This document shows, one piece after another, positions 18,669 to 30,855 of a stretch of 64,000 nucleotides of DNA. Both the position numbers and the translations under genes were made by a program. This stretch comes from an uncultured bacterium (GTDB lineage Bacteria; Desulfobacterota; GWC2-55-46). The notes under the pieces were generated by a model. The model was not told the DNA's origin, made no database searches, and saw only the letters and a list, made by a program, of their open reading frames with translations. Position 1 is the first letter of the stretch, and each line of letters opens with the position of its first letter. The DNA lies in NCBI GenBank assembly GCA_905339405.1, contig CAJPGC010000034.1, positions 3,052 through 67,051 on the forward strand, given 5' to 3'.

Positions 18669-18675
18669 TTGAAAA

Positions 18676-18800
18676 TCGCTATTTTCCCTGATCTCTTCGT
18701 CAGGATGAAAATAAAAATGCTCTCATATTGACATATATGTTCCGCTTTTTATTTTCACCCTTCCTTGACCTCAGAAAAAAATAGCTGATTTTCAGGGTAC
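18676..18800. repeat. Intergenic element of about 125 bp, copy 1 (duplicated at 20376-20500)
   Basis: tttccctgatctcttcgtcagg...aaataaaaatgctc.catattg.c.atatatg...cgctttttatttt..cccttcct.gacctcagaaaaaa. About 85 percent identity to copy 2 by eye. It contains a cctga/tcagg hairpin and a TTGACA box. Confidence 0.55.
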
Positions 18801-18846: not shown

Positions 18847-18875
18847 TTGACACCCCGGCTAAGTTGTATTATAAA
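18847..18875 (+). promoter_or_regulatory. Sigma70-like promoter driving the SAM riboswitch leader
   Basis: TTGACA (18847-18852), a 17-nt spacer, then TATAAA (18870-18875). The riboswitch starts about 20 nt downstream. Confidence 0.55.
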
Positions 18876-18895
18876 TCACACTACATTTTAATAGC

Positions 18896-19060
18896 AGTAT
18901 CTTATCACGAGTGGCAGAGGGACTGGCCCGTAGAAGCCACAGCAACCGGTTCCGCGCAAGCGGAATGTCAGGTGCTAACTCCAGCAAGGCTTGCAAGCCT
19001 TGAAAGATAAGAACAGGTCAAGCCATTGAGCCTCTTCTTATCAAGAAGAGGTTTTTTTTT
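18896..19060 (+). ncRNA. SAM-I (S-box) riboswitch with terminator expression platform
   Basis: tcttatcacgagtggcagagggactggcccgtagaagccacagcaacc...ggtgctaactccagcaagg...gaaagataaga matches the S-box consensus (P1 cttatca/gataag, GGGACUGGCCC core, GGUGCUAA). It is followed by cctcttcttatcaagaagagg plus a T9 terminator. Confidence 0.85.
19029..19060 (+). terminator. Riboswitch-controlled intrinsic terminator
   Basis: cctcttcttatcaagaagagg hairpin plus ttttttttt. The 5' arm (tcttatcaaga) can alternatively pair with the P1 3' strand, forming an anti-terminator. Confidence 0.75.
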
Positions 19061-19106
19061 GTCTTCCGCCGGGCACCGGGGTGGAATAATAAGGAGGAGA
19101 ACACGG

Positions 19107-20363
19107 ATGAGCTACATGAAGGCGTTGAAATGCAGGGAGTGCGGGAAGGAATATCCCAAGGAAGCGCTCCACGTCTGCGAGCTGTGCTTCGGCCCGCTTG
19201 AGGTCGCTTACGAGTACGAAAAGATAAAGGGCGTGCTCACTAGGGAAGTGATAGAGAAGAGGGCTCCCAACATGTGGCGCTACAAGGAACTCCTCCCCAT
19301 CGACGGAGAGCCTACAGTCGGAGCGCAGGTCGGGTACACGCCTCTCGTGAAGGCGGACAACCTCGCGAAGGCTTTGGGCGTAAAAGAGATATACATAAAG
19401 AACGACGCGGTCAACTACCCGACGCTCTCGTTCAAGGACAGGGTCGTCTCCGTGGCCCTCTCGAGGGCAAGGGAGCTGGGCTTCAAGATAGCGGCCTGCG
19501 CCTCGACCGGCAACCTCGCCAACTCGGTCGCGGCCAACGCCGCTGCCGCCGGCATGGAAAGCTTCGTCTTCATCCCCTCTGACCTCGAGCAGACCAAGAT
19601 AGTCGGCACGCTCGTGTACGGCGGCACCGTCGTGGGCATCAAGGGCACTTACGACGAGGTCAACAGGCTCTGCAGCGAGATAGCCGGAAAATACGGCTGG
19701 GCCTTCGTGAACATAAACATCAGGCCTTACTACGCCGAGGGCTCAAAGACCTTCGGGTACGAGATAGCCGAGCAGCTCGGCTGGAAGCTCCCGCAGAACA
19801 TAGTAGTGCCGATGGCCGGGGGCTCTCTTATAACCAAGATACACAAGGCCTTCAAGGAACTCTCTATACTTGGCTTCGTGGGCCCTGTAACCACAAAGGT
19901 GTTCGGCGCGCAGGCAGCAGGGTGCTCGCCCATAATCAACGCCGTGAAGGAAGGCACCGAGCTCATACGCCCGGTCAACAAGCCCAATACCATAGCCAAG
20001 TCGCTGGCCATTGGAAACCCGGCCGACGGCTACTACTCCGCCAAGGTCATGAGAGAGTCCGGCGGTTGGGGCGAGAACGTAACCGACGAGGAGATAATAG
20101 ATTCGATGAAGCTCCTCGCGGAGACCGAGGGCATATTCGCGGAGACCGCCGGCGGGGTCACGCTGGGCTCGGCCAGAAAGCTCATCGACAGCGGCAGGAT
20201 ATCCAGGGACGAGTCGATCGTCGTGTGCGTGACTGGCAACGGGCTCAAGACCCAGGAAGCGCTCGCGGGCAAGATAAACCCGCCGACCATAATAAACGCC
20301 AGGCTTCAGGAGTTTGACGACCTGGTGAAGGCGGGCGGCAAGGAGTACGCTGTAAGGGCGTAG
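19107..20363 (+). CDS. Threonine-synthase-family PLP enzyme with N-terminal Zn-ribbon; candidate MetM-like O-phosphohomoserine-dependent homocysteine synthase (or threonine synthase)
   Basis: RBS aaggagga then ATG 19107 (MSYMKALKCRECGKEY). PLP lysine region SFKDR. Fold-type II PLP motifs. It lies immediately downstream of a SAM riboswitch and upstream of sulfur-carrier genes. Confidence 0.8.
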   Translation: MSYMKALKCRECGKEYPKEALHVCELCFGPLEVAYEYEKIKGVLTREVIEKRAPNMWRYKELLPIDGEPTVGAQVGYTPLVKADNLAKALGVKEIYIKNDAVNYPTLSFKDRVVSVALSRARELGFKIAACASTGNLANSVAANAAAAGMESFVFIPSDLEQTKIVGTLVYGGTVVGIKGTYDEVNRLCSEIAGKYGWAFVNINIRPYYAEGSKTFGYEIAEQLGWKLPQNIVVPMAGGSLITKIHKAFKELSILGFVGPVTTKVFGAQAAGCSPIINAVKEGTELIRPVNKPNTIAKSLAIGNPADGYYSAKVMRESGGWGENVTDEEIIDSMKLLAETEGIFAETAGGVTLGSARKLIDSGRISRDESIVVCVTGNGLKTQEALAGKINPPTIINARLQEFDDLVKAGGKEYAVRA

Positions 20364-20375
20364 GCTGTCTTTCGG

Positions 20376-20500
20376 AAATCGTTCTTTTTCCTGATCTCTT
20401 CGTCAGGGCGTAAATAAAAATGCTCACATATTGCAATATATGCTGCGCTTTTTATTTCCGCCCTTCCTCGACCTCAGAAAAAAGCTCCGATTTCGAGAGT
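20376..20500. repeat. Intergenic element of about 125 bp, copy 2
   Basis: See copy 1. It is located directly after the stop of the ThrC-like gene. Confidence 0.55.
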
Positions 20501-20611
20501 AAGCCTTGGGCCATTTTCCGCTTCTATTTTCAGCCTTTTTTCTGGTATCATGGTACCATCCGAATTGGCCGCAAGCACGGCAAAGAGAGCGAAGGGAGAT
20601 TACTGTTTAAA

Positions 20612-21568
20612 ATGACAGACCATTTCATAGAAGATAAGACTACAAAAGTGACTGTAGCCGTCGACGGCACAGGGGCGGCGCAGAAGATAGACTTCAACGA
20701 CCTGAAGTCTGGCGGCTTCATAAAGCAGAGGCAGAAGGACCTGTTTACCGTGCGCCTGAGGTGCCCGGGCGGCAGGCTTTCAACCGAAAAGCTCGTCGAG
20801 ATATCGAAGATAGCCCACAAGTACAGCAAAAAGGGAGTGGTCCACTTCTCTTTCCGCCAGTCCCTCGAGATACTCTACGTAGACTACAAGGAGTTCAGCA
20901 CCGTCGTGGCCGAGCTCGAGAAGATCGGCCAGAAGGTCGCCTCCTGCGGCCCCAGGGTGAGGGTCCCGACCGCCTGCGGCGGCTGTGAGTACAACCCCAA
21001 CGGCCTCACTGACACGCAGAAGATGGCTGATATGGTCGACAAGACCTTCTTCGGCACGCCCACGCCGCATAAGTTCAAGACCTCTTTTTCCGGCTGCCCC
21101 ATCGACTGCGCCAGGACGAAGGAGATGGACATGGGCTTCCAGGGCGTAGTAGATCCGAAGTGGGAAGAGGAAGCCTGCACGGGCTGCACCATCTGCTCTG
21201 AGGCCTGCAAGGAAGACGCCATAGCCTCCGACCCGGACACCGGCAAGCCGATATTCGACCCCATAAAGTGCATATTCTGCGGGGACTGCATAAGGGCCTG
21301 CCCGACCGAAGCGTGGAAGCCGAAGAGGTACGGCCACATAGTGAGGCTCGGCGGCAAGCACGGCCGCCATCCGATGGAGGCCGTCGAGGTCTGCCAGTTC
21401 CTTCCGGACGAGAAGGTCGGGGATGCCATCAAGATGACCATCGACTGGTACAACGCGAACGGCAAGAGGGGCGAGAGGATAGGCAATACCATAAAGAGGG
21501 TAGGCCTCGAGAGCTACCTGAAGCACATGGAACCTGTATTCCAGAACGCCGCGAAAGCCGGGGCATAG
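20612..21568 (+). CDS. Dissimilatory-type sulfite reductase-like protein (nitrite/sulfite reductase siroheme half-domain with inserted 2x[4Fe-4S] ferredoxin domain)
   Basis: Siroheme/FeS coupling cysteines (SCGPRVRVPTACGGCE ... FSGCPIDCAR). Ferredoxin motifs CTGCTICSEAC and CIFCGDCIRACP. ATG 20612 (MTDHFIE) is chosen. Confidence 0.7.
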   Translation: MTDHFIEDKTTKVTVAVDGTGAAQKIDFNDLKSGGFIKQRQKDLFTVRLRCPGGRLSTEKLVEISKIAHKYSKKGVVHFSFRQSLEILYVDYKEFSTVVAELEKIGQKVASCGPRVRVPTACGGCEYNPNGLTDTQKMADMVDKTFFGTPTPHKFKTSFSGCPIDCARTKEMDMGFQGVVDPKWEEEACTGCTICSEACKEDAIASDPDTGKPIFDPIKCIFCGDCIRACPTEAWKPKRYGHIVRLGGKHGRHPMEAVEVCQFLPDEKVGDAIKMTIDWYNANGKRGERIGNTIKRVGLESYLKHMEPVFQNAAKAGA

Positions 21569-21575
21569 GAGCCAT

Positions 21576-21800
21576 ATGAGCGACTCTACTATAGACTTGC
21601 GCGGGGTCATGTGCCCCATAAACTTCGTTAAGACGAAGCTGAAGCTCGAGATGATGGAGCCCGGAGAGATACTCGAGGTCATACTCGACTCCGGCGACCC
21701 CATCCAGAACGTGCCCAAGTCGATAAAGGAAGAGGGGCACAAGATTGTCGAAGTAAAAAAAGAGGGCGATTTTTTCCGGCTTAAAGTCCAAAGAAGCTGA
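21576..21800 (+). CDS. tusA: TusA/SirA-family sulfurtransferase
   Basis: 74 aa. DLRGVMCPINFVKTKL has the CPxP active-site motif. Confidence 0.85.
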   Translation: MSDSTIDLRGVMCPINFVKTKLKLEMMEPGEILEVILDSGDPIQNVPKSIKEEGHKIVEVKKEGDFFRLKVQRS

Positions 21801-21935
21801 TCAGACTGCTGAAAACGCTCCATCTGTGTTGTTGTCTTCGTCGCTCGTCATTGCGTCGTACAAGCAACGTACGCCTCATGCCTCGCTCCTCGACGCCTGG
21901 CATCTGAAGCGTTTTGAGCAGCCAGAATAAAGACG
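21801..21935. repeat. MITE-like element (family copy, CAGRCTGCTGAAAAC terminal inverted repeats)
   Basis: tcagactgctgaaaacg ... cgttttgagcagccaga inverted termini. Internal ccatctgtgttgttgtc head and gtcattgcgtcgtac...gtacgcctcatg palindrome. Confidence 0.5.
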
Positions 21936-21976
21936 CAGTTAAGTAAACTGAATTATATACAGGAGGAACCAGAAGT

Positions 21977-22258
21977 ATGTCGATAAAGGTCAGGATACCG
22001 ACCCCGCTCAGGAAGCTTACGAACGGCTCTGACGAGGTCAGCGCAACAGGCAGGAACGTAGGAGAGATAATCGAGGACCTCGAGAAGGCCTATCCCGGAC
22101 TCAAGGAGAGGATCTGCGAAGGGGACGGCAAGCTCCGCAGGTTCGTCAACATCTACCTGAACGACGAGGACATCAGGTTCAAGAACAACCTTGAGACCGA
22201 GCTCAAGGAGAACGACGAGCTTTCCATAATCCCAGCCATAGCGGGAGGCGCAGCTTGA
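21977..22258 (+). CDS. MoaD/ThiS-family sulfur-carrier protein (CysO/HcyS-like) with GG-AA C-terminus
   Basis: 93 aa beta-grasp-like protein ending ...IIPAIAGGAA. There are two residues after the Gly-Gly, as in HcyS-Ala type carriers that need JAMM processing. Confidence 0.8.
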   Translation: MSIKVRIPTPLRKLTNGSDEVSATGRNVGEIIEDLEKAYPGLKERICEGDGKLRRFVNIYLNDEDIRFKNNLETELKENDELSIIPAIAGGAA

Positions 22259-22491
22259 AAAAAAGGGTGTATCTCACCTATCCGAAGGAACAGGTCAAGG
22301 AACCGCTCCTTTACCAGGTAGGGAAGAACTTCGAGGTCGTGACCAACATCAGGCAGGCGAGCGTTTCCGACAAGCTTGGCCTCGTGGCTCTCGAGCTCGA
22401 CGGCGAGCCTGAGGAGATCGAGAAGGCGATACAGTTCCTTGTGGACAAGGGCGTCAAGGTCGAGCCCATAGAGCTCGACATAATAGAGTAG
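22255..22491 (+). CDS. Stand-alone NIL-domain protein (MetN C-terminal-like regulatory/ligand-binding domain)
   Basis: 78 aa. TTG start overlaps the carrier gene stop (TTGA). LLYQVGKNFEVVTNIRQASV...LGLVALELDGEPEEIEKAIQFL resembles the NIL domain. Confidence 0.55.
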   Translation: MKKRVYLTYPKEQVKEPLLYQVGKNFEVVTNIRQASVSDKLGLVALELDGEPEEIEKAIQFLVDKGVKVEPIELDIIE

Positions 22492-22763
22492 CCCTGGAGG
22501 TCCGGACTCTCTCAAAACCGCCGGTCCGGGTACTGTACAGGGCAGGTCATGAGAGCGAAAAGGATTGTTTTTTCTTGAAAAACCCCGGCATTCAGCTGCC
22601 GGGGTTTTTTTTATTTCCAGAGGCGCCAAGCCGCTCAAATTATCTTGACAGGGCTACTAAGGTATTATAAACTTGAGAAGCTTACTAAGGTATTTTTCCG
22701 CTCAGGCAGCGCCCGAAATCCCGGTTCAGGAAAAGTTCACCCCCCGTGGGGAGGTATTATAAT

Positions 22764-23717
22764 ATGAGAGGACAGAGGCTGCTTGAAAACCAGCCAGCAA
22801 GGCAGTATTCAATGGCAAAAGGCTCAGTAATAAACCTTGTCGGAAATACCCCGTTAGTCAGGATAAACAGCATAACAAGGGACCTGCCTCCCGAGGTAGA
22901 AGTTTACGCCAAGCTCGAGGGCTATAACCCAGGAGGCTCGGTCAAGGACAGGGCCGCCCTCAGCATGATACTTGACGCCGAGGCGAGCGGCAGACTGACC
23001 CCCGACAAGATAATCCTTGATTCGACCTCAGGCAACACAGGCATAGCCTACGCGTGGATAGGCGCCGTGAAGGGCTATAGCGTCGAGCTCGTCGTCCCGG
23101 CCAACGTAAGCGAGGAAAGAAAGAAGATTTTGAACGCTTTCGGCGCCCATGTCATCTATTCGAACCCTCTGGAGGGTTCTGACGGCGCCATCAGGCTCGC
23201 CTGGAAACTCTACGTCGAAAACCCCGAAAAATACTGCAAGCTCGACCAGTACAACAACCCCTCGAACCCGCTCGCCCATTTCAACGGCACAGGGGCCGAG
23301 ATAATAGAGCAGACCGAGGGCAGGGTAACTCATTTCGTGGCCTCGATCGGCACCGGCGGCACCATCATGGGCACCGGCAGAAGGCTCAAGGAATTCAACC
23401 CCGACATACAGGTACAGGCCGTCGAGCCTGCCACGGCCTTCCACGGCCTCGAAGGGTTGAAGCACATGGCCTCTTCGATAGTCCCCGGCATATACCACGA
23501 AGAAGAGCTCGACGAGAAGATACCTGCCCCGACCGAAGAGTCGTATACGATGGCCAAGAGGCTTGCAAGGGAAGAAGGCCTTCTTGTCGGCCAGTCTTCC
23601 GGGGCTGCCATGTGGGGAGCCCTGGAAGTCGCCAAAAAGCTCAAGAAGGGCGTAGTGGTCGTCATATTCCCGGACGGCGGAGATAAGTATCTGTCAACGC
23701 GCCTCTGGGAAGCGTAA
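22764..23717 (+). CDS. cysM: Cysteine synthase (CysM/CysK family, PLP fold-type II; probable thiocarboxylate-dependent O-phosphoserine/O-acetylserine sulfhydrylase)
   Basis: GNTPLVRI, the PLP lysine in NPGGSVKDRAA, and the GTGGT glycine loop (SIGTGGTIMG). RBS ggggagg lies upstream of ATG 22764. Confidence 0.85.
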   Translation: MRGQRLLENQPARQYSMAKGSVINLVGNTPLVRINSITRDLPPEVEVYAKLEGYNPGGSVKDRAALSMILDAEASGRLTPDKIILDSTSGNTGIAYAWIGAVKGYSVELVVPANVSEERKKILNAFGAHVIYSNPLEGSDGAIRLAWKLYVENPEKYCKLDQYNNPSNPLAHFNGTGAEIIEQTEGRVTHFVASIGTGGTIMGTGRRLKEFNPDIQVQAVEPATAFHGLEGLKHMASSIVPGIYHEEELDEKIPAPTEESYTMAKRLAREEGLLVGQSSGAAMWGALEVAKKLKKGVVVVIFPDGGDKYLSTRLWEA

Positions 23718-23720
23718 ACA

Positions 23721-23940
23721 GGCTGCTGAAAACCCATAGCGAGCGTAAGCGAGCGAATAGAAAACGTTATTTCCTTAGGTTTCGAAGCTCACTGCGGCTT
23801 GCCGCTGGGAGCTTCAAAAATCTATCTCCATCTGCTTTGTTGTCTTTGTCGCGCGTCATTGAGGCGTACAAAAGAGTACGCCTCATGACTTGCTCCTCGA
23901 CGCCTCGCATATGGAGTTTTTGAGCAGCCTGAACAAAGTC
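23721..23940. repeat. MITE-like element (same family as 21801-21935) carrying a ~90-bp nested insertion
   Basis: caggctgctgaaaac ... tttttgagcagcctg inverted termini. Extra segment ccatagcgagcgtaagcgagcgaatag...ggagcttcaaaa lies between the TIR and the conserved ctccatctgctttgttgtc block. Confidence 0.5.
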
Positions 23941-23980
23941 GGAATTTTCCAGTAATCAGCTAAAAAGGAGTGACCCTCAG

Positions 23981-24436
23981 ATGGGGCTTTTCGGTTTCGG
24001 CAAGACAGCCGTACACATATCCAGGTCGGTATACGAGGAAATACTCAGTCACGCGAAGGAAGCTTACCCGAACGAGTGCTGCGGAGTGCTCGTCGGCGCG
24101 AACTACGGCGGCGAGCGCAAGATATTCGAATCCCACAGGGCGACCAACGTCAACACGGACAGGGCCCACGACAGGTACATAATCGACCCGAGGGAGTTCA
24201 ACCTCATCGACAAGATGGCAAGGTCGCAGTCGATGGACGTCATGGGCTTTTACCATTCTCATCCAGACCATCCGGACAAGCCCTCCCAGACCGACAGGGA
24301 ATGGGGACAGACCGGCTACTCCTACATCATCGTCGCCGTCAAGGGCGGCAAGGAGACTTCGATGAGGAGCTGGATGATAGAGGACGACACGGCCCCGTTC
24401 ACTGAAGAGAAGATAAAGGTACTCGAAAACCAGTAA
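23981..24436 (+). CDS. JAMM/MPN+ metalloprotease (Mec+/CysO-cysteine peptidase, HcyD-like)
   Basis: JAMM motif HSHPDHPDKPSQTD (H-x-H-x7-S-x2-D) and upstream conserved Glu in NECCGVLVG. Confidence 0.85.
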   Translation: MGLFGFGKTAVHISRSVYEEILSHAKEAYPNECCGVLVGANYGGERKIFESHRATNVNTDRAHDRYIIDPREFNLIDKMARSQSMDVMGFYHSHPDHPDKPSQTDREWGQTGYSYIIVAVKGGKETSMRSWMIEDDTAPFTEEKIKVLENQ

Positions 24437-24558
24437 GCTTTTTTATATATAAAACGAACTCATCGGCCCGGGGCTTTGAAGCCTTGCGGCTTTGGTGCGC
24501 CCCCGAGGGGCATTTTCGCATTTATACTCTGTATATATGAGCCGGAGGAGCCTGTACA

Positions 24559-25383
24559 ATGGATTTCACAGAAGAGCAGATTGAGCGGTATTCGAGGCAT
24601 ATAATACTCCCGGAGGTGGGGGGCAAGGGGCAGGCTAAGCTCCTTAAAAGCAAGGTCTTCGTGCTGGGCGCGGGCGGCCTGGGCTCGCCTTCGCTCCTTT
24701 ATCTCGCGGCTGCCGGCGTGGGCACCATCGGCATAGCCGACGGCGACTCGGTCGACATGAGCAACCTCCAGCGCCAGATAATCCATAACAACGAGCGCGT
24801 CGGAGTGCCAAAGGTCCACTCCGCGAAAGAGACCATAAACAAGCTGAACCCCGACGTCAACGTGCAGCCCTTCCACGGCAGGCTCACCGTCGACAACATA
24901 AGGGAGATAATAAGGGATTACGACGTCGTCCTGGACGGCTCGGACAACTTCCCCACCCGCTTTCTCATGAACGACGCCTGCTTCTTCGAGCAAAAGCCCC
25001 TTGTCTCGGGCTCGATGTTCAGGTTCGACGGCCAGGTCTCGGTCTTCCACCCGAGAAAGGGCTTCCCGTGCTACAGGTGCCTGTACCCGGAGCCCCCGCC
25101 AAAGGGGCTCGTGCCGAGCTGCCAGGAAGCGGGAGTTCTCGGAGCGCTCGCCGGAGTCATCGGCGTACTCCAGGCCGTGGAGACAATAAAACTCCTCCTT
25201 GGCATCGGTGACACCCTCGAGGGCCATCTCATGATATTCGACGCCCTCAAGATGAACTTTCGCAAGGTCAGGGTCAGGAAAGACCCCGAGTGCGCCCTGT
25301 GCGGAGAGAACGCCACAATAAAAGAACTCGTGGCCTATGAAGAACAGGCCTGCGAATACAAACCGGTCACCTGCGAACACTAA
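24559..25383 (+). CDS. MoeB/ThiF-type E1 adenylyltransferase for sulfur-carrier activation (no rhodanese domain)
   Basis: YSRHIILPEVGGKGQAKL. Glycine-rich ATP loop VLGAGGLGSP. CxxC pairs (CYRC ... CALC). 274 aa, so it lacks a C-terminal rhodanese module. Confidence 0.85.
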   Translation: MDFTEEQIERYSRHIILPEVGGKGQAKLLKSKVFVLGAGGLGSPSLLYLAAAGVGTIGIADGDSVDMSNLQRQIIHNNERVGVPKVHSAKETINKLNPDVNVQPFHGRLTVDNIREIIRDYDVVLDGSDNFPTRFLMNDACFFEQKPLVSGSMFRFDGQVSVFHPRKGFPCYRCLYPEPPPKGLVPSCQEAGVLGALAGVIGVLQAVETIKLLLGIGDTLEGHLMIFDALKMNFRKVRVRKDPECALCGENATIKELVAYEEQACEYKPVTCEH

Positions 25384-25588
25384 ACCGGCAGGCTCGCTGA
25401 TTTATTGAGAGAACCTTTTTGTAAAAAGGTTCTCTCAAACTCTCTCCAAAAACTTATAGTTCTTCCCGGGACAACCCCCTTAAGGGGGCTGTCCCGGGAA
25501 CTTAAAGTCTTTGAAGGGGGTCTGGGGGAGACTTTCTACAGAAAGTTTCCCCCAAAAAATCCAGCGGTCTGACGGGCAAGCGAGAATA

Positions 25589-26788
25589 ATGCACAATTAC
25601 CTGGACAATCCGGCGTCCCTCAAGATAGACCTGATGCTTCGGGGCATAAGGATGGAAGACCCCGTCGTGAAGGCCTGGGCCTGCGGCTGTTCGGGCATTG
25701 ACATGCTTCTGCCGCAGGACACGCTCGTCAACATACCCTGCATGGAAGAGTTCACGAGGAACTCGCCGTACACGGTGAAGAGGGCGGGGGAGAGGTATTT
25801 CATTACGGACGGCAGGGCCGAGGTCGAGGTGAAACTCGTGGAAAGGCCGGCCTTCTATTCGAGGAAGACTACCTCCGGGGTGCAGTTCTCGGAGATTGCC
25901 TCCGTTCACGGCAGCTACACGGTAATAACGCCTTCGCCGAGGTGCGACTTTTTCAACCGCAGCATCGAGTGCAGGTACTGCGCCGGGAATTTCGACGTAA
26001 AGGGCTCATCCGACGTCGTCTACACGATAGAGGACATACTGGAGACGGTCGAGGCGGTCCTCAAAGAGAAGGCCTCGGAGGTCATATACCTGTCCATCGG
26101 CTTCAGCCAGGGCGACGACGGCGGAATAGCGTTTTTGAAGCCTTACATACAGGCCATTAAGAAGAGCTTCAACTGCCTTGTGGCCGTGGAGGCGCTGCCG
26201 CCCAGGGACAACCGCTGGATAGACGAGACGTACGCGATGGGGGCCGACTCGGTCCTTTATAACCTCGAGATATTCGACAAGGAGCTCTTCGAGCTGATAT
26301 GCCCGGGCAGGGCTTCCCTCGTGGGGCGCAAAAGATACCTCGAGTCGCTGAAGTACGCCGCGAAGGTATTCCCCAACGGCACTGTGGCTTCCCACCTCAT
26401 TGTGGGGCTCGAGCCTCCCGGGTCTACCTGCATGGGGATAGACTGCTTCACGGACATGGGAGTAGTGCCCATCCTTCCCATCTACAGGCCCTCGGCCGGG
26501 AAGGCGTTGAGGATAGAGCCTCTGACGACTGAGATAATACTGCCGGTCTACAAGCACCTTTACAACGCTGTCAAGAAAAACGGGATAAACCTCTCCTGGG
26601 TGCGTGACATAAGCATGGTGACGACCCCGGCCGAGATACGGGGCCTGGTCGACGGCGGCAAGGGCGGCACTCTCATGGAGAGCTTCTACAAGTCCAGGAT
26701 CGGGCTCAAGGCCGCCTGGGGGCTCTCTACGATAAGGAGGAAGCTCAGGGTCGTAGGCAGCGATGACTCAGACCCTTCGAAACACTGA
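25589..26788 (+). CDS. Radical-SAM-like TIM-barrel protein with atypical cysteine motif (C-x8-C-x2-C); function unknown
   Basis: SPRCDFFNRSIECRYCAG followed by rSAM-like glycine-rich and beta/alpha barrel blocks (VIYLSIGFSQGDDGG, HLIVGLEPPGS). ATG 25589 is chosen. Family not recognised. Confidence 0.4.
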   Translation: MHNYLDNPASLKIDLMLRGIRMEDPVVKAWACGCSGIDMLLPQDTLVNIPCMEEFTRNSPYTVKRAGERYFITDGRAEVEVKLVERPAFYSRKTTSGVQFSEIASVHGSYTVITPSPRCDFFNRSIECRYCAGNFDVKGSSDVVYTIEDILETVEAVLKEKASEVIYLSIGFSQGDDGGIAFLKPYIQAIKKSFNCLVAVEALPPRDNRWIDETYAMGADSVLYNLEIFDKELFELICPGRASLVGRKRYLESLKYAAKVFPNGTVASHLIVGLEPPGSTCMGIDCFTDMGVVPILPIYRPSAGKALRIEPLTTEIILPVYKHLYNAVKKNGINLSWVRDISMVTTPAEIRGLVDGGKGGTLMESFYKSRIGLKAAWGLSTIRRKLRVVGSDDSDPSKH

Positions 26789-28235
26789 TGCTGGAGTTCT
26801 TTGCGTGAGTTTACAAATCGACACCCGGCCAATCTGGCTGATACTGGCCATCAAATGCCTGAGGCCGGTATTTTTCCTGGTCCTTGCCTCGCTGTTCCTG
26901 TATTTCATCTGGATGCCCGCACCCGTGGGCCTCTCAATAGAGGGCCAGCGGGCCATCGCCGTATTCCTCCTTTGCCTCGTCCTGTGGGTATCTAACGCGA
27001 TACCGCTGGCGATAACGGGCATACTCGCCATCGTGCTGGTGCCGGTCCTAGGGATACTCCCGAACAAGGTCACTTATTCCCTTTTCGGGAACGAGGCCGT
27101 CTTTTTCATACTCGGCGCGTTCATCCTCGCGGGCGCGGTCATGCACTCGGGCATATCGAACAGGCTCGCCCTGTACATACTCGACAGGTTCGGGGGCTCG
27201 CCGAGGGGTCTTCTCATAACGGTATTCCTGCTGGCGGCTGCGCTCTCGTTCATAATGTCCGAGCACGCCGTGGCGGCCATGCTCTTCCCCATAGTCATCG
27301 AAATATCCAAGAGCCTGGGCCTCAAGCCCGGGAAGTCCAATTATGGTAAGCTCCTTTTCTTCTCCATGGCCTGGGGTTGCATAATCGGCGGCGTGGCGAC
27401 GTTCCTGGGGGGGGCGAGGGTGCCGCTAGCCGTGGGCATATTGAAGGAGACGACCGGCAGCCAGATAGGCTTTCTCGACTATTCCATCGCCGTCTTCCCG
27501 CTCGTCGTCATACTCCTTTTCGCGGGCTACATGCTCCTTACAAGGATATTCCCCATCGACATAACCGGGGTCGAGGAAGCCCACGGGGTCCTGAAGAAAA
27601 GGCTCAAGGCGCTTGGAAAACTGAGCTTCAGCGAGTACTCGGTCGGGGCGGTCCTCGCCATTACGGTCTTCGCCTGGATAGTCCTGGGCGAGAAGTTCGG
27701 GCTGGCGGCCATCGCGCTGGCCTCTGTCGTGGCCCTTTTCGTCTTCAGGATGGTAAGGTGGAAAGATATAGAAGAATACGTCAATTGGGGTATAATACTC
27801 ATGTACGGCGGGGCCATCGTGCTGGGGTCTGCCCTCGACAAGAGCGGCGCGGCCAAGTGGCTCGTCGGCATGGCTATAGGAGACTGGGCGAGCGAGCCCT
27901 GGGCGGCTTTCGCGCTCTTCTCGTTCCTTTCGATACTGCTTACGGCCGCCATGAGCAACGCGGCCGTCATCGCCGTGCTCCTGCCTGTGAGCATCGGCAT
28001 GGCTCAGACGCTCTCCATCGACCCCGTCATGCTCACTTACGCCATAGCGGTACCGGCAGGCCTCGATTTCATGTTCCCGATGGGCACGCCGGCCATCGCG
28101 ATAGCGGCCTCCTCGAACTACATAACCGTCAAGGAGAGCGCCAAGGGCGGCTTCGTCATGTTCGTCGCCGCATGGGTCGTTTTCAACCTCGTGGCGGCCT
28201 TCTGGTGGCCGCTCATAGGCATGGGCTATAGATGA
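26763..28235 (+). CDS. DASS/SLC13-family anion:Na+ symporter (candidate sulfate permease)
   Basis: Polytopic protein with duplicated hairpin-loop architecture, about 14 TM. The context is next to APS reductase and ATP sulfurylase. The start may lie downstream of 26763 (it overlaps the previous gene). Confidence 0.75.
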   Translation: MTQTLRNTDAGVLCVSLQIDTRPIWLILAIKCLRPVFFLVLASLFLYFIWMPAPVGLSIEGQRAIAVFLLCLVLWVSNAIPLAITGILAIVLVPVLGILPNKVTYSLFGNEAVFFILGAFILAGAVMHSGISNRLALYILDRFGGSPRGLLITVFLLAAALSFIMSEHAVAAMLFPIVIEISKSLGLKPGKSNYGKLLFFSMAWGCIIGGVATFLGGARVPLAVGILKETTGSQIGFLDYSIAVFPLVVILLFAGYMLLTRIFPIDITGVEEAHGVLKKRLKALGKLSFSEYSVGAVLAITVFAWIVLGEKFGLAAIALASVVALFVFRMVRWKDIEEYVNWGIILMYGGAIVLGSALDKSGAAKWLVGMAIGDWASEPWAAFALFSFLSILLTAAMSNAAVIAVLLPVSIGMAQTLSIDPVMLTYAIAVPAGLDFMFPMGTPAIAIAASSNYITVKESAKGGFVMFVAAWVVFNLVAAFWWPLIGMGYR

Positions 28236-28747
28236 AGAAGATACTCCTCGTGCTGTCGTACTCGGGTTTTTCAGGCAAGGCCATCGACGAGGCCGTAGCC
28301 AGGGCCAAAAAGGAGAAGGCGGCGCTTGCCGCCCTTTACCTTCTGGAAGGCGGGGCGGCCGAGAGCGTCTTCGACAAGTTTTCGGATATCGGCTTCATGG
28401 GCGACAGGCCTTCCGAGGACCTCTCCAGGCTCCTCATGAAGGAGTCGAGGCAAAGGGGTTACGAAGCGCTCGGCAAGGTGCAGATAAAGGCGATGGAAGA
28501 GGGCGTCCCGTTCGAGCCGCTGGTGGAAGAGGACGCAACTGTTGAAAAGGTCCTTGCGGTCATCGAAAAGACAGACCCTTCCGCCGTCTACGTGCTCAAG
28601 AGGAAGCAGAGGGCGTTTTTCAAGTATTTTACAAGATCGCTCGCCGACGAGCTTGCCGAAAGGGCAGGCTGCGAGGTGGCGGTGATTACCGAAGAAGGCG
28701 AACAGGAAAAGGAGGACGGTAATGTCAAAGGTATGGACGGAAAGTGA
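28232..28747 (+). CDS. Usp-like alpha/beta domain protein
   Basis: 171 aa. Usp-like N-terminus (KILLVLSYSGFSGKAIDEAV) but no clear ATP-binding glycine motif. Acidic tail. Confidence 0.4.
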   Translation: MKKILLVLSYSGFSGKAIDEAVARAKKEKAALAALYLLEGGAAESVFDKFSDIGFMGDRPSEDLSRLLMKESRQRGYEALGKVQIKAMEEGVPFEPLVEEDATVEKVLAVIEKTDPSAVYVLKRKQRAFFKYFTRSLADELAERAGCEVAVITEEGEQEKEDGNVKGMDGK

Positions 28748-29420
28748 ACTGAAAAATATAAGCGAAAGCCTCGAAGGAAAGGCGCCCGAAGAAGCGGTAA
28801 GGTGGGCGGTAGAGAACTTCGGGAAAAAAGAGCTTTCACTGGCGTGCAGTTTCGGGGCCGAGGACGTCGTGCTGGTAGACATGCTCGTGAAGATAAAGCC
28901 GGACGCGAGGATATTCTACCTGGACACGGACCTGCTCTTCAAGGAGACCCACGAACTCATGGAGAGGGTAAAAGCGAAATACGGCGTTGCCCCCGAGAGG
29001 TACGGCGCGAAAGCAACGCTTGAGCAGATGGAAAAGGACCTGGGCCCGGAGCTCTGGAAGAGGGAGCCGGACAAGTGCTGCGATATTAGGAAGATGGTCC
29101 CGCTGGCCGAGGCGCTATCCGAGCTCCGCTGCTGGATAACCGGCATAAGGCGCGACCAGGCCCCGACGAGGGCTAACGCTCCGGTCGTGAGCTGGGACGC
29201 GAAGTTCGGCCTCGTGAAGGTCAATCCGCTCGTCAGGTGGACCACTAAAGACGTCTGGGACTACATCACGAAGAATAACGTGCCGTACTGCACCCTTCAC
29301 GACAAGAACTTCCCGTCGATAGGCTGCGAGCCCTGCACCAGGCCGGTGGCTCCCGGGGAAGACCCGAGGGCCGGCAGGTGGGCCGGTTTCCAGAAGACCG
29401 AGTGCGGCCTTCACAAGTAG
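28722..29420 (+). CDS. cysH: Assimilatory adenylylsulfate (APS) reductase, thioredoxin-dependent, [4Fe-4S]-containing CysH
   Basis: PAPS/APS reductase fold with the C-terminal ECGLH motif. CC (KCCDIRK) and CxxC (GCEPC) cysteine pairs are characteristic of APS-specific enzymes. Confidence 0.85.
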   Translation: MSKVWTESELKNISESLEGKAPEEAVRWAVENFGKKELSLACSFGAEDVVLVDMLVKIKPDARIFYLDTDLLFKETHELMERVKAKYGVAPERYGAKATLEQMEKDLGPELWKREPDKCCDIRKMVPLAEALSELRCWITGIRRDQAPTRANAPVVSWDAKFGLVKVNPLVRWTTKDVWDYITKNNVPYCTLHDKNFPSIGCEPCTRPVAPGEDPRAGRWAGFQKTECGLHK

Positions 29421-29424
29421 GAAA

Positions 29425-29575
29425 AGATTTGTTGTCATTCTGAAGGAGCAAAGCGGCTGAAGAATCTCGTGCCTGCATCAAAAGACGAGATTCTTCGCTG
29501 CGCTCAGAATGACGAAATTTATAAGCATGAATCATTGTGGCAAACCGGAGCAATACTGCATTTGCTCCGCCCGCG
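29425..29575. repeat. MITE/REP-like palindromic repeat (gtcattctga...tcagaatgac type; related to 13349-13500)
   Basis: ttgttgtcattctgaaggagcaaagcggctgaagaatctcg ... cgagattcttcgctgcgctcagaatgacgaaattt. Confidence 0.55.
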
Positions 29576-29620
29576 ATGTTCTTTATCCTATAAAAAGAAA
29601 ATCCCCAGGAGGTATTTTTT

Positions 29621-30788
29621 CGTGGAAGGACTCATAAGGCCGCACGGCGGAGTGCTCGTAAACAGGATCCTCGAAGGCAAGGAGAGGGAGGACGCCGCCA
29701 ACAGGGCCGCCGGACTCAGGAAGATACGCCTCAACGAAAGGGAGATATCAGACCTCGAGATGATCTCCATCGGGGCATTGAGCCCCCTTGAAGGCTTCAT
29801 GGGCAGGGACGACTACCATTCGGTCATGGACACCATGCACATGAAGAACGGCCTGCCCTGGACGATACCCATAACACTTTCGGTCACGGCCGAAGAGGCT
29901 GGAGCCCTGAAGGCCGGTATGGAAGTGGCTTTGACCGACGGCGAGGGAACCGTGCTGGCCGTCATGTCGATAGCCGAGATATTCCCCCACGACAAGGAAA
30001 AGGAAGCGATACAGGTCTACGGCACCAGCGAGGACAAGCACCCCGGCGTCAAGAAGGTCTACGAGATGGGCGAGATGCTCCTGGGCGGCAAGGTGTCGAC
30101 CATAAAGAGACCTGTGCACACGAAGTTCATGGAAGAGAGGCTCGACCCGAAGGACACGAGGGCCCTGTTTACAGAGAAGGGCTGGAAGAAGGTCGTCGGT
30201 TTCCAGACTAGGAACCCCATACACAGGGCGCACGAGTACATCCAGAAGTGCGCTCTGGAGATAGTCGACGGCATACTCATACACCCGCTCGTCGGCGAGA
30301 CGAAGTCGGACGACATCCCGGCCGAGGTGAGGATGAAGTGCTACAAGGCCCTCATCTCCGGTTACTACCCGAAGGACAGGGTCGCCCTCGTCGTCAACCC
30401 GGCGGCCATGAGGTATGCCGGGCCCAAAGAGGCGGTTTTCCACGCCCTCATCAGGAAGAACTACGGCTGCACCCACTTCATAATAGGCAGGGACCACGCC
30501 GGGGTCGGCAACTACTACGGCACCTTCGACGCCCATTACATCTTCGAGAACTTCGACCCGCTGGCCATCGGCATAACGCCGCTGTTCTTCGACTACACCT
30601 TCTTCTGCAAGTGCTGCGGCGGCATGGCTTCGTACAAGACCTGCCCGCACGAGTCGGCGAACCACATAATCCTGTCAGGCACAAAGGTCAGGGAGATGCT
30701 GAGGAGCGGCGTTTGCCCGCCGCCGGAATTCTCAAGGCCGGAAGTTGCAAAGATTCTGATAGAGGCCATGCAGGGCCAGGCCCAGTAG
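29621..30788 (+). CDS. sat: Sulfate adenylyltransferase (ATP sulfurylase)
   Basis: QTRNPIHRAHE and GRDHAGV motifs. RBS ccaggagg precedes GTG 29621. The ORF-track start at 29469 would read through the repeat element. Confidence 0.9.
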
Positions 30789-30855
30789 TACACAAAAGCC
30801 GCTCTCTGACAGAGAGCGGCTTTTTTTTGACTAATAAAGGGGAGAGGTTTTTTTT

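Follow-up and report, generated by a model that had tools for sequence, protein, structure and literature searches.

In the 64,000-nucleotide stretch of DNA analysed here (the window), derived from an uncultured Thermodesulfobacteriota bacterium, we confirmed the presence of a gene cluster, conserved widely in other genomes, in which known systems are combined with two conserved partner proteins, a NIL domain and a radical-SAM protein. The cluster probably participates in sulfate uptake and reduction, in the loading of sulfur onto a small ubiquitin-like carrier and in homocysteine synthesis, and perhaps also in cysteine synthesis. The explanation that we favour, and consider fairly probable, is a sulfur-assimilation cluster of two units with MetM-like synthesis of homocysteine from the carrier thiocarboxylate. 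The new points come from three gene fusions outside this lineage, joining the carrier to NIL, sulfite reductase to TusA and the radical-SAM protein to the DASS transporter; they suggest that the members of each pair are functionally tied.

Gene content and conservation

All genes named in a preliminary description of this DNA, as well as the riboswitch preceding them, were recovered by domain and covariance models; these and all other features given below lie on the + strand. The gene content corresponds to the complete route then proposed, leading from sulfate over a carrier thiocarboxylate to sulfur amino acids. A synteny comparison showed that the 12-gene order is repeated in 17 other genome loci of relatives and that the order of the first five genes is kept in 32 loci, and the arrangement is thus not due to chance. 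A wider conserved core, composed of the riboswitch, a zinc-ribbon ThrC homologue, a CysO-like carrier and the NIL domain, was found in Thermodesulfobacteriota, Zetaproteobacteria, Verrucomicrobiia and Auribacterota.

Two transcription units

The genes had been thought to form a single regulon. They are instead organised in two transcription units, since a strong terminator, conserved in its position, follows the NIL gene, and cysM is preceded by another promoter, likewise conserved and bearing a paired operator-like motif. Unit 1 (18847-22618) would start at a sigma-70-type promoter, read from the sequence as TTGACA-N17-TATAAA (18847-18875). At this position CTTGACA and TATTATAAA are kept in 12 related loci, whereas the flanks are not conserved. 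The promoter is followed by a SAM-I riboswitch aptamer (18899-19013), matching the full Rfam model RF00162 with 87.4 bits (gathering score 44.4). Its expression platform is an intrinsic terminator with a 12-bp stem and a T-run (19028-19062). The 5' arm of this terminator, TTCTTATC (19036-19043), reads as complementary to the 3' strand of P1, GATAAGAA (19005-19012), and would form an antiterminator with it. At high SAM the riboswitch would end transcription of unit 1, whose predicted products are the zinc-ribbon ThrC homologue, a small Fsr/Dsr-like siroheme sulfite reductase, TusA, a CysO-type carrier and the NIL domain. Placing the sole carrier gene and the sulfite reductase behind a SAM riboswitch would be an awkward regulatory design if cysteine synthesis also needed them, a point that counts against the favoured explanation.

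The intrinsic terminator ending unit 1 (22577-22618) has a 14-bp stem and a T-run (dG -23.1 kcal/mol, z -5.35). A simple scan of 27 related loci found a terminator at the NIL-CysM position in 15 of them, where the sequence of the stem is not the same. The promoter of unit 2 (22643-22694, TTGACA at 22645) is a near-invariant sequence island in 12 loci and contains two copies of a candidate operator, ACTAAGGTATT (22656-22666 and 22684-22694). Of 26 loci, 14 have this motif twice, and its matches on the + strand, 32 in total, all fall within the NIL-CysM gap. From this conserved promoter with its operator-like pair, unit 2 (22643-30832) would express CysM, a JAMM peptidase, a rhodanese-less E1, a variant radical-SAM protein, a DASS transporter, a USP protein, APS reductase and ATP sulfurylase, up to a second intrinsic terminator (30794-30832; dG -22.6 kcal/mol, z -7.37).

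Sulfate uptake and reduction

The proposed sulfate importer is a DASS-family anion symporter (26763-28235; TIGR00785 247.7 bits, cutoff 198.6; Na_sulph_symp 202.9 bits), preceded by the variant radical-SAM protein (25589-26788), which has a CX8CX2C motif and is fused to the DASS transporter in other lineages. The next gene, overlooked in the preliminary description, encodes a USP-domain protein (28232-28747; PF00582, 37 bits); it overlaps both neighbouring genes, and its position behind DASS is kept in the delta-clade loci as well as in related locus L085. The putative activation and reduction enzymes are a thioredoxin-dependent APS reductase (CysH) ending in ECGLHK (28722-29420; TIGR02055 241 bits, cutoff 235.3; NF002537 272 bits) and an ATP sulfurylase (Sat) of 388 amino acids from a GTG start (29622-30788; NF003166 568 bits, cutoff 387), equal in length to that of related locus L001.

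The sulfite reductase (20612-21568, 318 amino acids) is a small siroheme enzyme of the Dsr-like/Fsr C-terminal type, with NIR_SIR and NIR_SIR_ferr domains and an inserted 2x[4Fe-4S] ferredoxin domain (Fer4); 13 of its cysteines are invariant in 37 orthologues. Its best solved relative is the C-terminal half of F420-dependent sulfite reductase (7NP8, E 4.5e-41). Like this half of Fsr (PDB 7NP8/7NPA; residues 35-309 aligned) and Dsr-like proteins, it combines a siroheme/[4Fe-4S] module with an inserted two-cluster ferredoxin, but it stands alone, without the F420H2-oxidising half, and its first two cysteines have the spacing CX2C, not CX5C. The adjacent gene encodes a TusA-family sulfurtransferase with the Cys-Pro motif (21576-21800; PF01206, 80.6 bits), and the two proteins form one polypeptide in 14 zetaproteobacterial loci.

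The carrier and its partners

The ubiquitin-like sulfur carrier (21977-22258; PF02597, ThiS/MoaD) is of the CysO type, ends in PAIAGG-AA and matches M. tuberculosis CysO (3DWG_C) over its full length with E 8.4e-24; a related fused carrier showed 48-49% identity and TM 0.91-0.93 in Foldseek. In 69 related loci, either 0-3 variable residues or a fused NIL domain come after the Gly-Gly of the carrier. Gly-Gly is the exact end of only 3 of 60 unfused carriers, the others having 1-3 extra residues, and nine more carriers are fused to NIL. Most carriers would therefore need a trimming peptidase. The likely candidate is the JAMM/MPN+ metallopeptidase of the Mec/HcyD type (23981-24436; Prok-JAB 84.8 bits), assigned also by its PDB relatives, with the motif HSHPDHPDKPSQTD intact in the translation. 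No JAMM gene was found near three loci with a fused carrier-NIL, which counts against the favoured explanation.

The stand-alone NIL domain (22255-22491; PF09383, 59.4 bits) overlaps the carrier stop codon with its start (TTGA). In all 65 of 65 loci it comes after the carrier, and it is fused to it in nine loci and in a large protein family. It has a MetN C2-like fold, and its Asn31 aligns with N295 of E. coli MetN. The MoeB/ThiF-type E1 adenylyltransferase (24559-25383, 274 amino acids; E. coli MoeB 1JW9, E 5e-60) matched PF00899 (279.9 bits) as its sole domain, no rhodanese domain being detected in it with the domain models. A molybdopterin or thiamine pathway had been named earlier as the possible home of these genes, but neither MoaE nor ThiG was present in the window or among the called genes of related loci L001 and L083-L085.

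Proposed mechanism

Our observations are the domain identities, the gene order with its conservation, the regulatory elements and the fusions seen in other lineages; the following scheme, with every enzyme activity, the passing on of sulfur and any use of the carrier by CysM, is inferred. Sulfate would be imported by the DASS transporter, activated to APS and reduced to sulfite and then to sulfide. TusA would take up the reduced sulfur, replacing the absent rhodanese domain. The carrier, made as a GG-Ala-Ala precursor, would be trimmed by the JAMM peptidase to expose Gly-Gly, adenylated by the E1 and converted by sulfur transfer to its thiocarboxylate. From this and O-phosphohomoserine the MetM-like ThrC homologue would form homocysteine, to be freed from the carrier adduct by the JAMM peptidase, and CysM may produce cysteine from the same carrier. 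The roles of the NIL domain, the radical-SAM protein and the USP protein lie outside this model.

Cysteine or methionine as destination of the sulfur

The CysM/CysK-family cysteine synthase (22764-23717) has 317 amino acids from an ATG with a GGAGG ribosome-binding site; it scores 355 bits on TIGR01136 (cysKM, cutoff 344) and 386 on TIGR01138 (cysM, cutoff 394). Its best solved relatives are the enteric CysM of E. coli and Salmonella (238 bits), M. tuberculosis CysM reaching 192 bits. It is thus nearer to the sulfide/thiosulfate-using enteric enzyme than to the O-phosphoserine-dependent one, which counts against the favoured explanation. The carrier might then serve the methionine branch only, with CysM acting as an ordinary O-acetylserine sulfhydrylase B on free sulfide or thiosulfate, and unit 2 might be a conventional sulfate-assimilation/cysteine operon that also houses the E1 and peptidase of the carrier. 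This is a serious alternative, although we doubt it somewhat. It agrees with the separation of cysM from the carrier gene by a terminator and a distinct conserved promoter, with the minimal module conserved elsewhere, ThrC homologue plus carrier-NIL without CysM, and with the SAM control of the carrier. On the other hand, the carrier is a close CysO homologue, and cysM is immediately followed by the JAMM and E1 genes as in mec-cysO-cysM and in the 'cysteine synthase + ThiS + JAB + E1' operons listed in rows 4c and 4d of PMC1779556. Furthermore, the riboswitch-led string of Zetaproteobacteria and of related locus L035 includes a CysK/M-type gene adjoining the carrier.

The homocysteine branch of the favoured reading is well supported by context, in which it resembles MetM/MetO of Streptomyces (2024). 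The zinc-ribbon ThrC-family PLP enzyme (19107-20363, 418 amino acids; PALP 230 bits), the proposed MetM-type homocysteine synthase, starts at an ATG downstream of the riboswitch terminator, the TTG at 19026 not being the true start. Its four N-terminal cysteines and the lysine of SFKDR are invariant in 83 orthologues, and solved ThrC structures align only from about residue 52. When 84 other loci were examined with our own covariance model, 73 of them, among which are Zetaproteobacteria, Verrucomicrobiia and Auribacterota, had one SAM-I riboswitch copy immediately before the ThrC-like gene. In the gene-order comparison, 59 of 60 loci have a CysO-like carrier behind that gene. By both counts this SAM-controlled protein is almost certainly a methionine-pathway enzyme.

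That the ThrC homologue is a genuine threonine synthase, the riboswitch merely balancing the branching at O-phosphohomoserine and the carrier system being reserved for cysteine, is improbable. The protein does exceed the cutoffs of the threonine synthase models TIGR00260 and NF006050, its closest solved structures are threonine synthases, and all database names call it so; that it clears the NCBI equivalog cutoff of NF006050 (311 bits, cutoff 303) speaks against the favoured reading. However, SAM repression of the cell's threonine synthase would make little sense, as an OFF-switch would send more precursor to methionine when SAM is already high. The pair of ThrC homologue and carrier also occurs with few or no other sulfur genes in Limnocylindrales, Nitrospirae and Lindowbacteria, three distant phyla, and neither hom nor thrB appeared nearby, whether in the window or among the genes listed for related loci. 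According to the GapMind authors (preprint 10.1101/2024.10.14.618325), threonine synthase is a common misannotation of MetM, and CysH-ThrC fusions in Thermoplasmata are described in PMC11237513.

Least probable of all is a SAMP/Urm1-like system (protein conjugation, Moco, thiamine or tRNA thiolation) lying beside the sulfate genes by chance: the carrier scores above the NCBIfam SAMP1 cutoff (66, cutoff 60), the best JAMM model is haloarchaeal desampylase and the E1 reaches 345 bits on the UbaA model, but the last two scores are under their cutoffs, neither the window nor the gene lists of related loci showed MoaE, ThiG or tRNA thiolase genes, the nearest solved relative of the carrier is CysO, and different phyla keep this gene order along with sulfur-amino-acid enzymes and the SAM riboswitch.

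Comparison with known systems

The SAM-controlled ThrC homologue had been regarded as a distinguishing part, but together with the carrier it matches MetM/MetO of Streptomyces albulus, a pathway reportedly described by Hasebe et al. (2024, Appl Environ Microbiol 90:e01247-24). There, a threonine-synthase homologue adjoins a ThiS/MoaD-type carrier, with a SAM riboswitch upstream of metM (PMC12172450), the pathway needs a Mec-type peptidase as well as an E1, and O-phosphohomoserine and the carrier thiocarboxylate are proposed to yield homocysteine; the likeness is one of context and description. As far as that account goes, the present locus differs by an E1 without the rhodanese domain found in MoeZ, by a carrier that in the locus and its relatives is always adjoined or fused to NIL, and by its position within a full sulfate-reduction cluster (Dsr-like sulfite reductase, TusA, radical-SAM protein, DASS transporter).

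The HcyS/HcyD/HcyF/MetY system of Wolinella succinogenes, reportedly the subject of work by Krishnamoorthy and Begley in 2011, is counted here with operon type 4e. The latter was defined by comparative genomics (Iyer, Burroughs and Aravind 2006, PMC1779556, Table 1 row 4e), and the cited row comprises, in one neighbourhood as in our locus, a ThiS/MoaD carrier, JAMM, a rhodanese-less E1, SirA/TusA, sulfite reductase, (P)APS reductase and ATP sulfurylase. Sulfite reductase and TusA as sulfur source, likewise thought distinguishing, thus belong with the rhodanese-less E1 to a recurrent operon type. Shared with it is also a carrier residue after Gly-Gly that is removed by JAMM. The locus differs in its sulfhydrylase, which is of the ThrC family (fold type II) and not the O-acetylhomoserine sulfhydrylase MetY, in its DASS instead of ABC transporter, in its small Fsr/Dsr-like sulfite reductase, and in the additional SAM riboswitch, NIL, radical-SAM protein and USP.

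With CysO/CysM/Mec+/MoeZ of M. tuberculosis the locus shares the CysO-like carrier and the adjacent CysM-family and JAMM genes, but the E1 lacks a rhodanese domain, CysM is nearer to the enteric enzyme, and the carrier gene lies in another, SAM-controlled transcription unit. In the DUF39 and NIL/ferredoxin homocysteine pathway of methanogens and Desulfovibrio, as outlined in PMC5764234, NIL is also genetically tied to homocysteine formation in anaerobes. In our locus, by comparison with that outline, DUF39 is absent, NIL has no ferredoxin domain and is tied to a ubiquitin-like carrier, and the precursor is presumably O-phosphohomoserine rather than aspartate semialdehyde.

A dispersed intergenic repeat of about 125 nucleotides, with no part in the mechanism, is present at 20376-20483 and 18673-18780. 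The former copy is inserted before the sulfite reductase gene, and an open reading frame start at 20420 was rejected as its artefact. At least six copies of this repeat lie within 21 kb of related locus L003.

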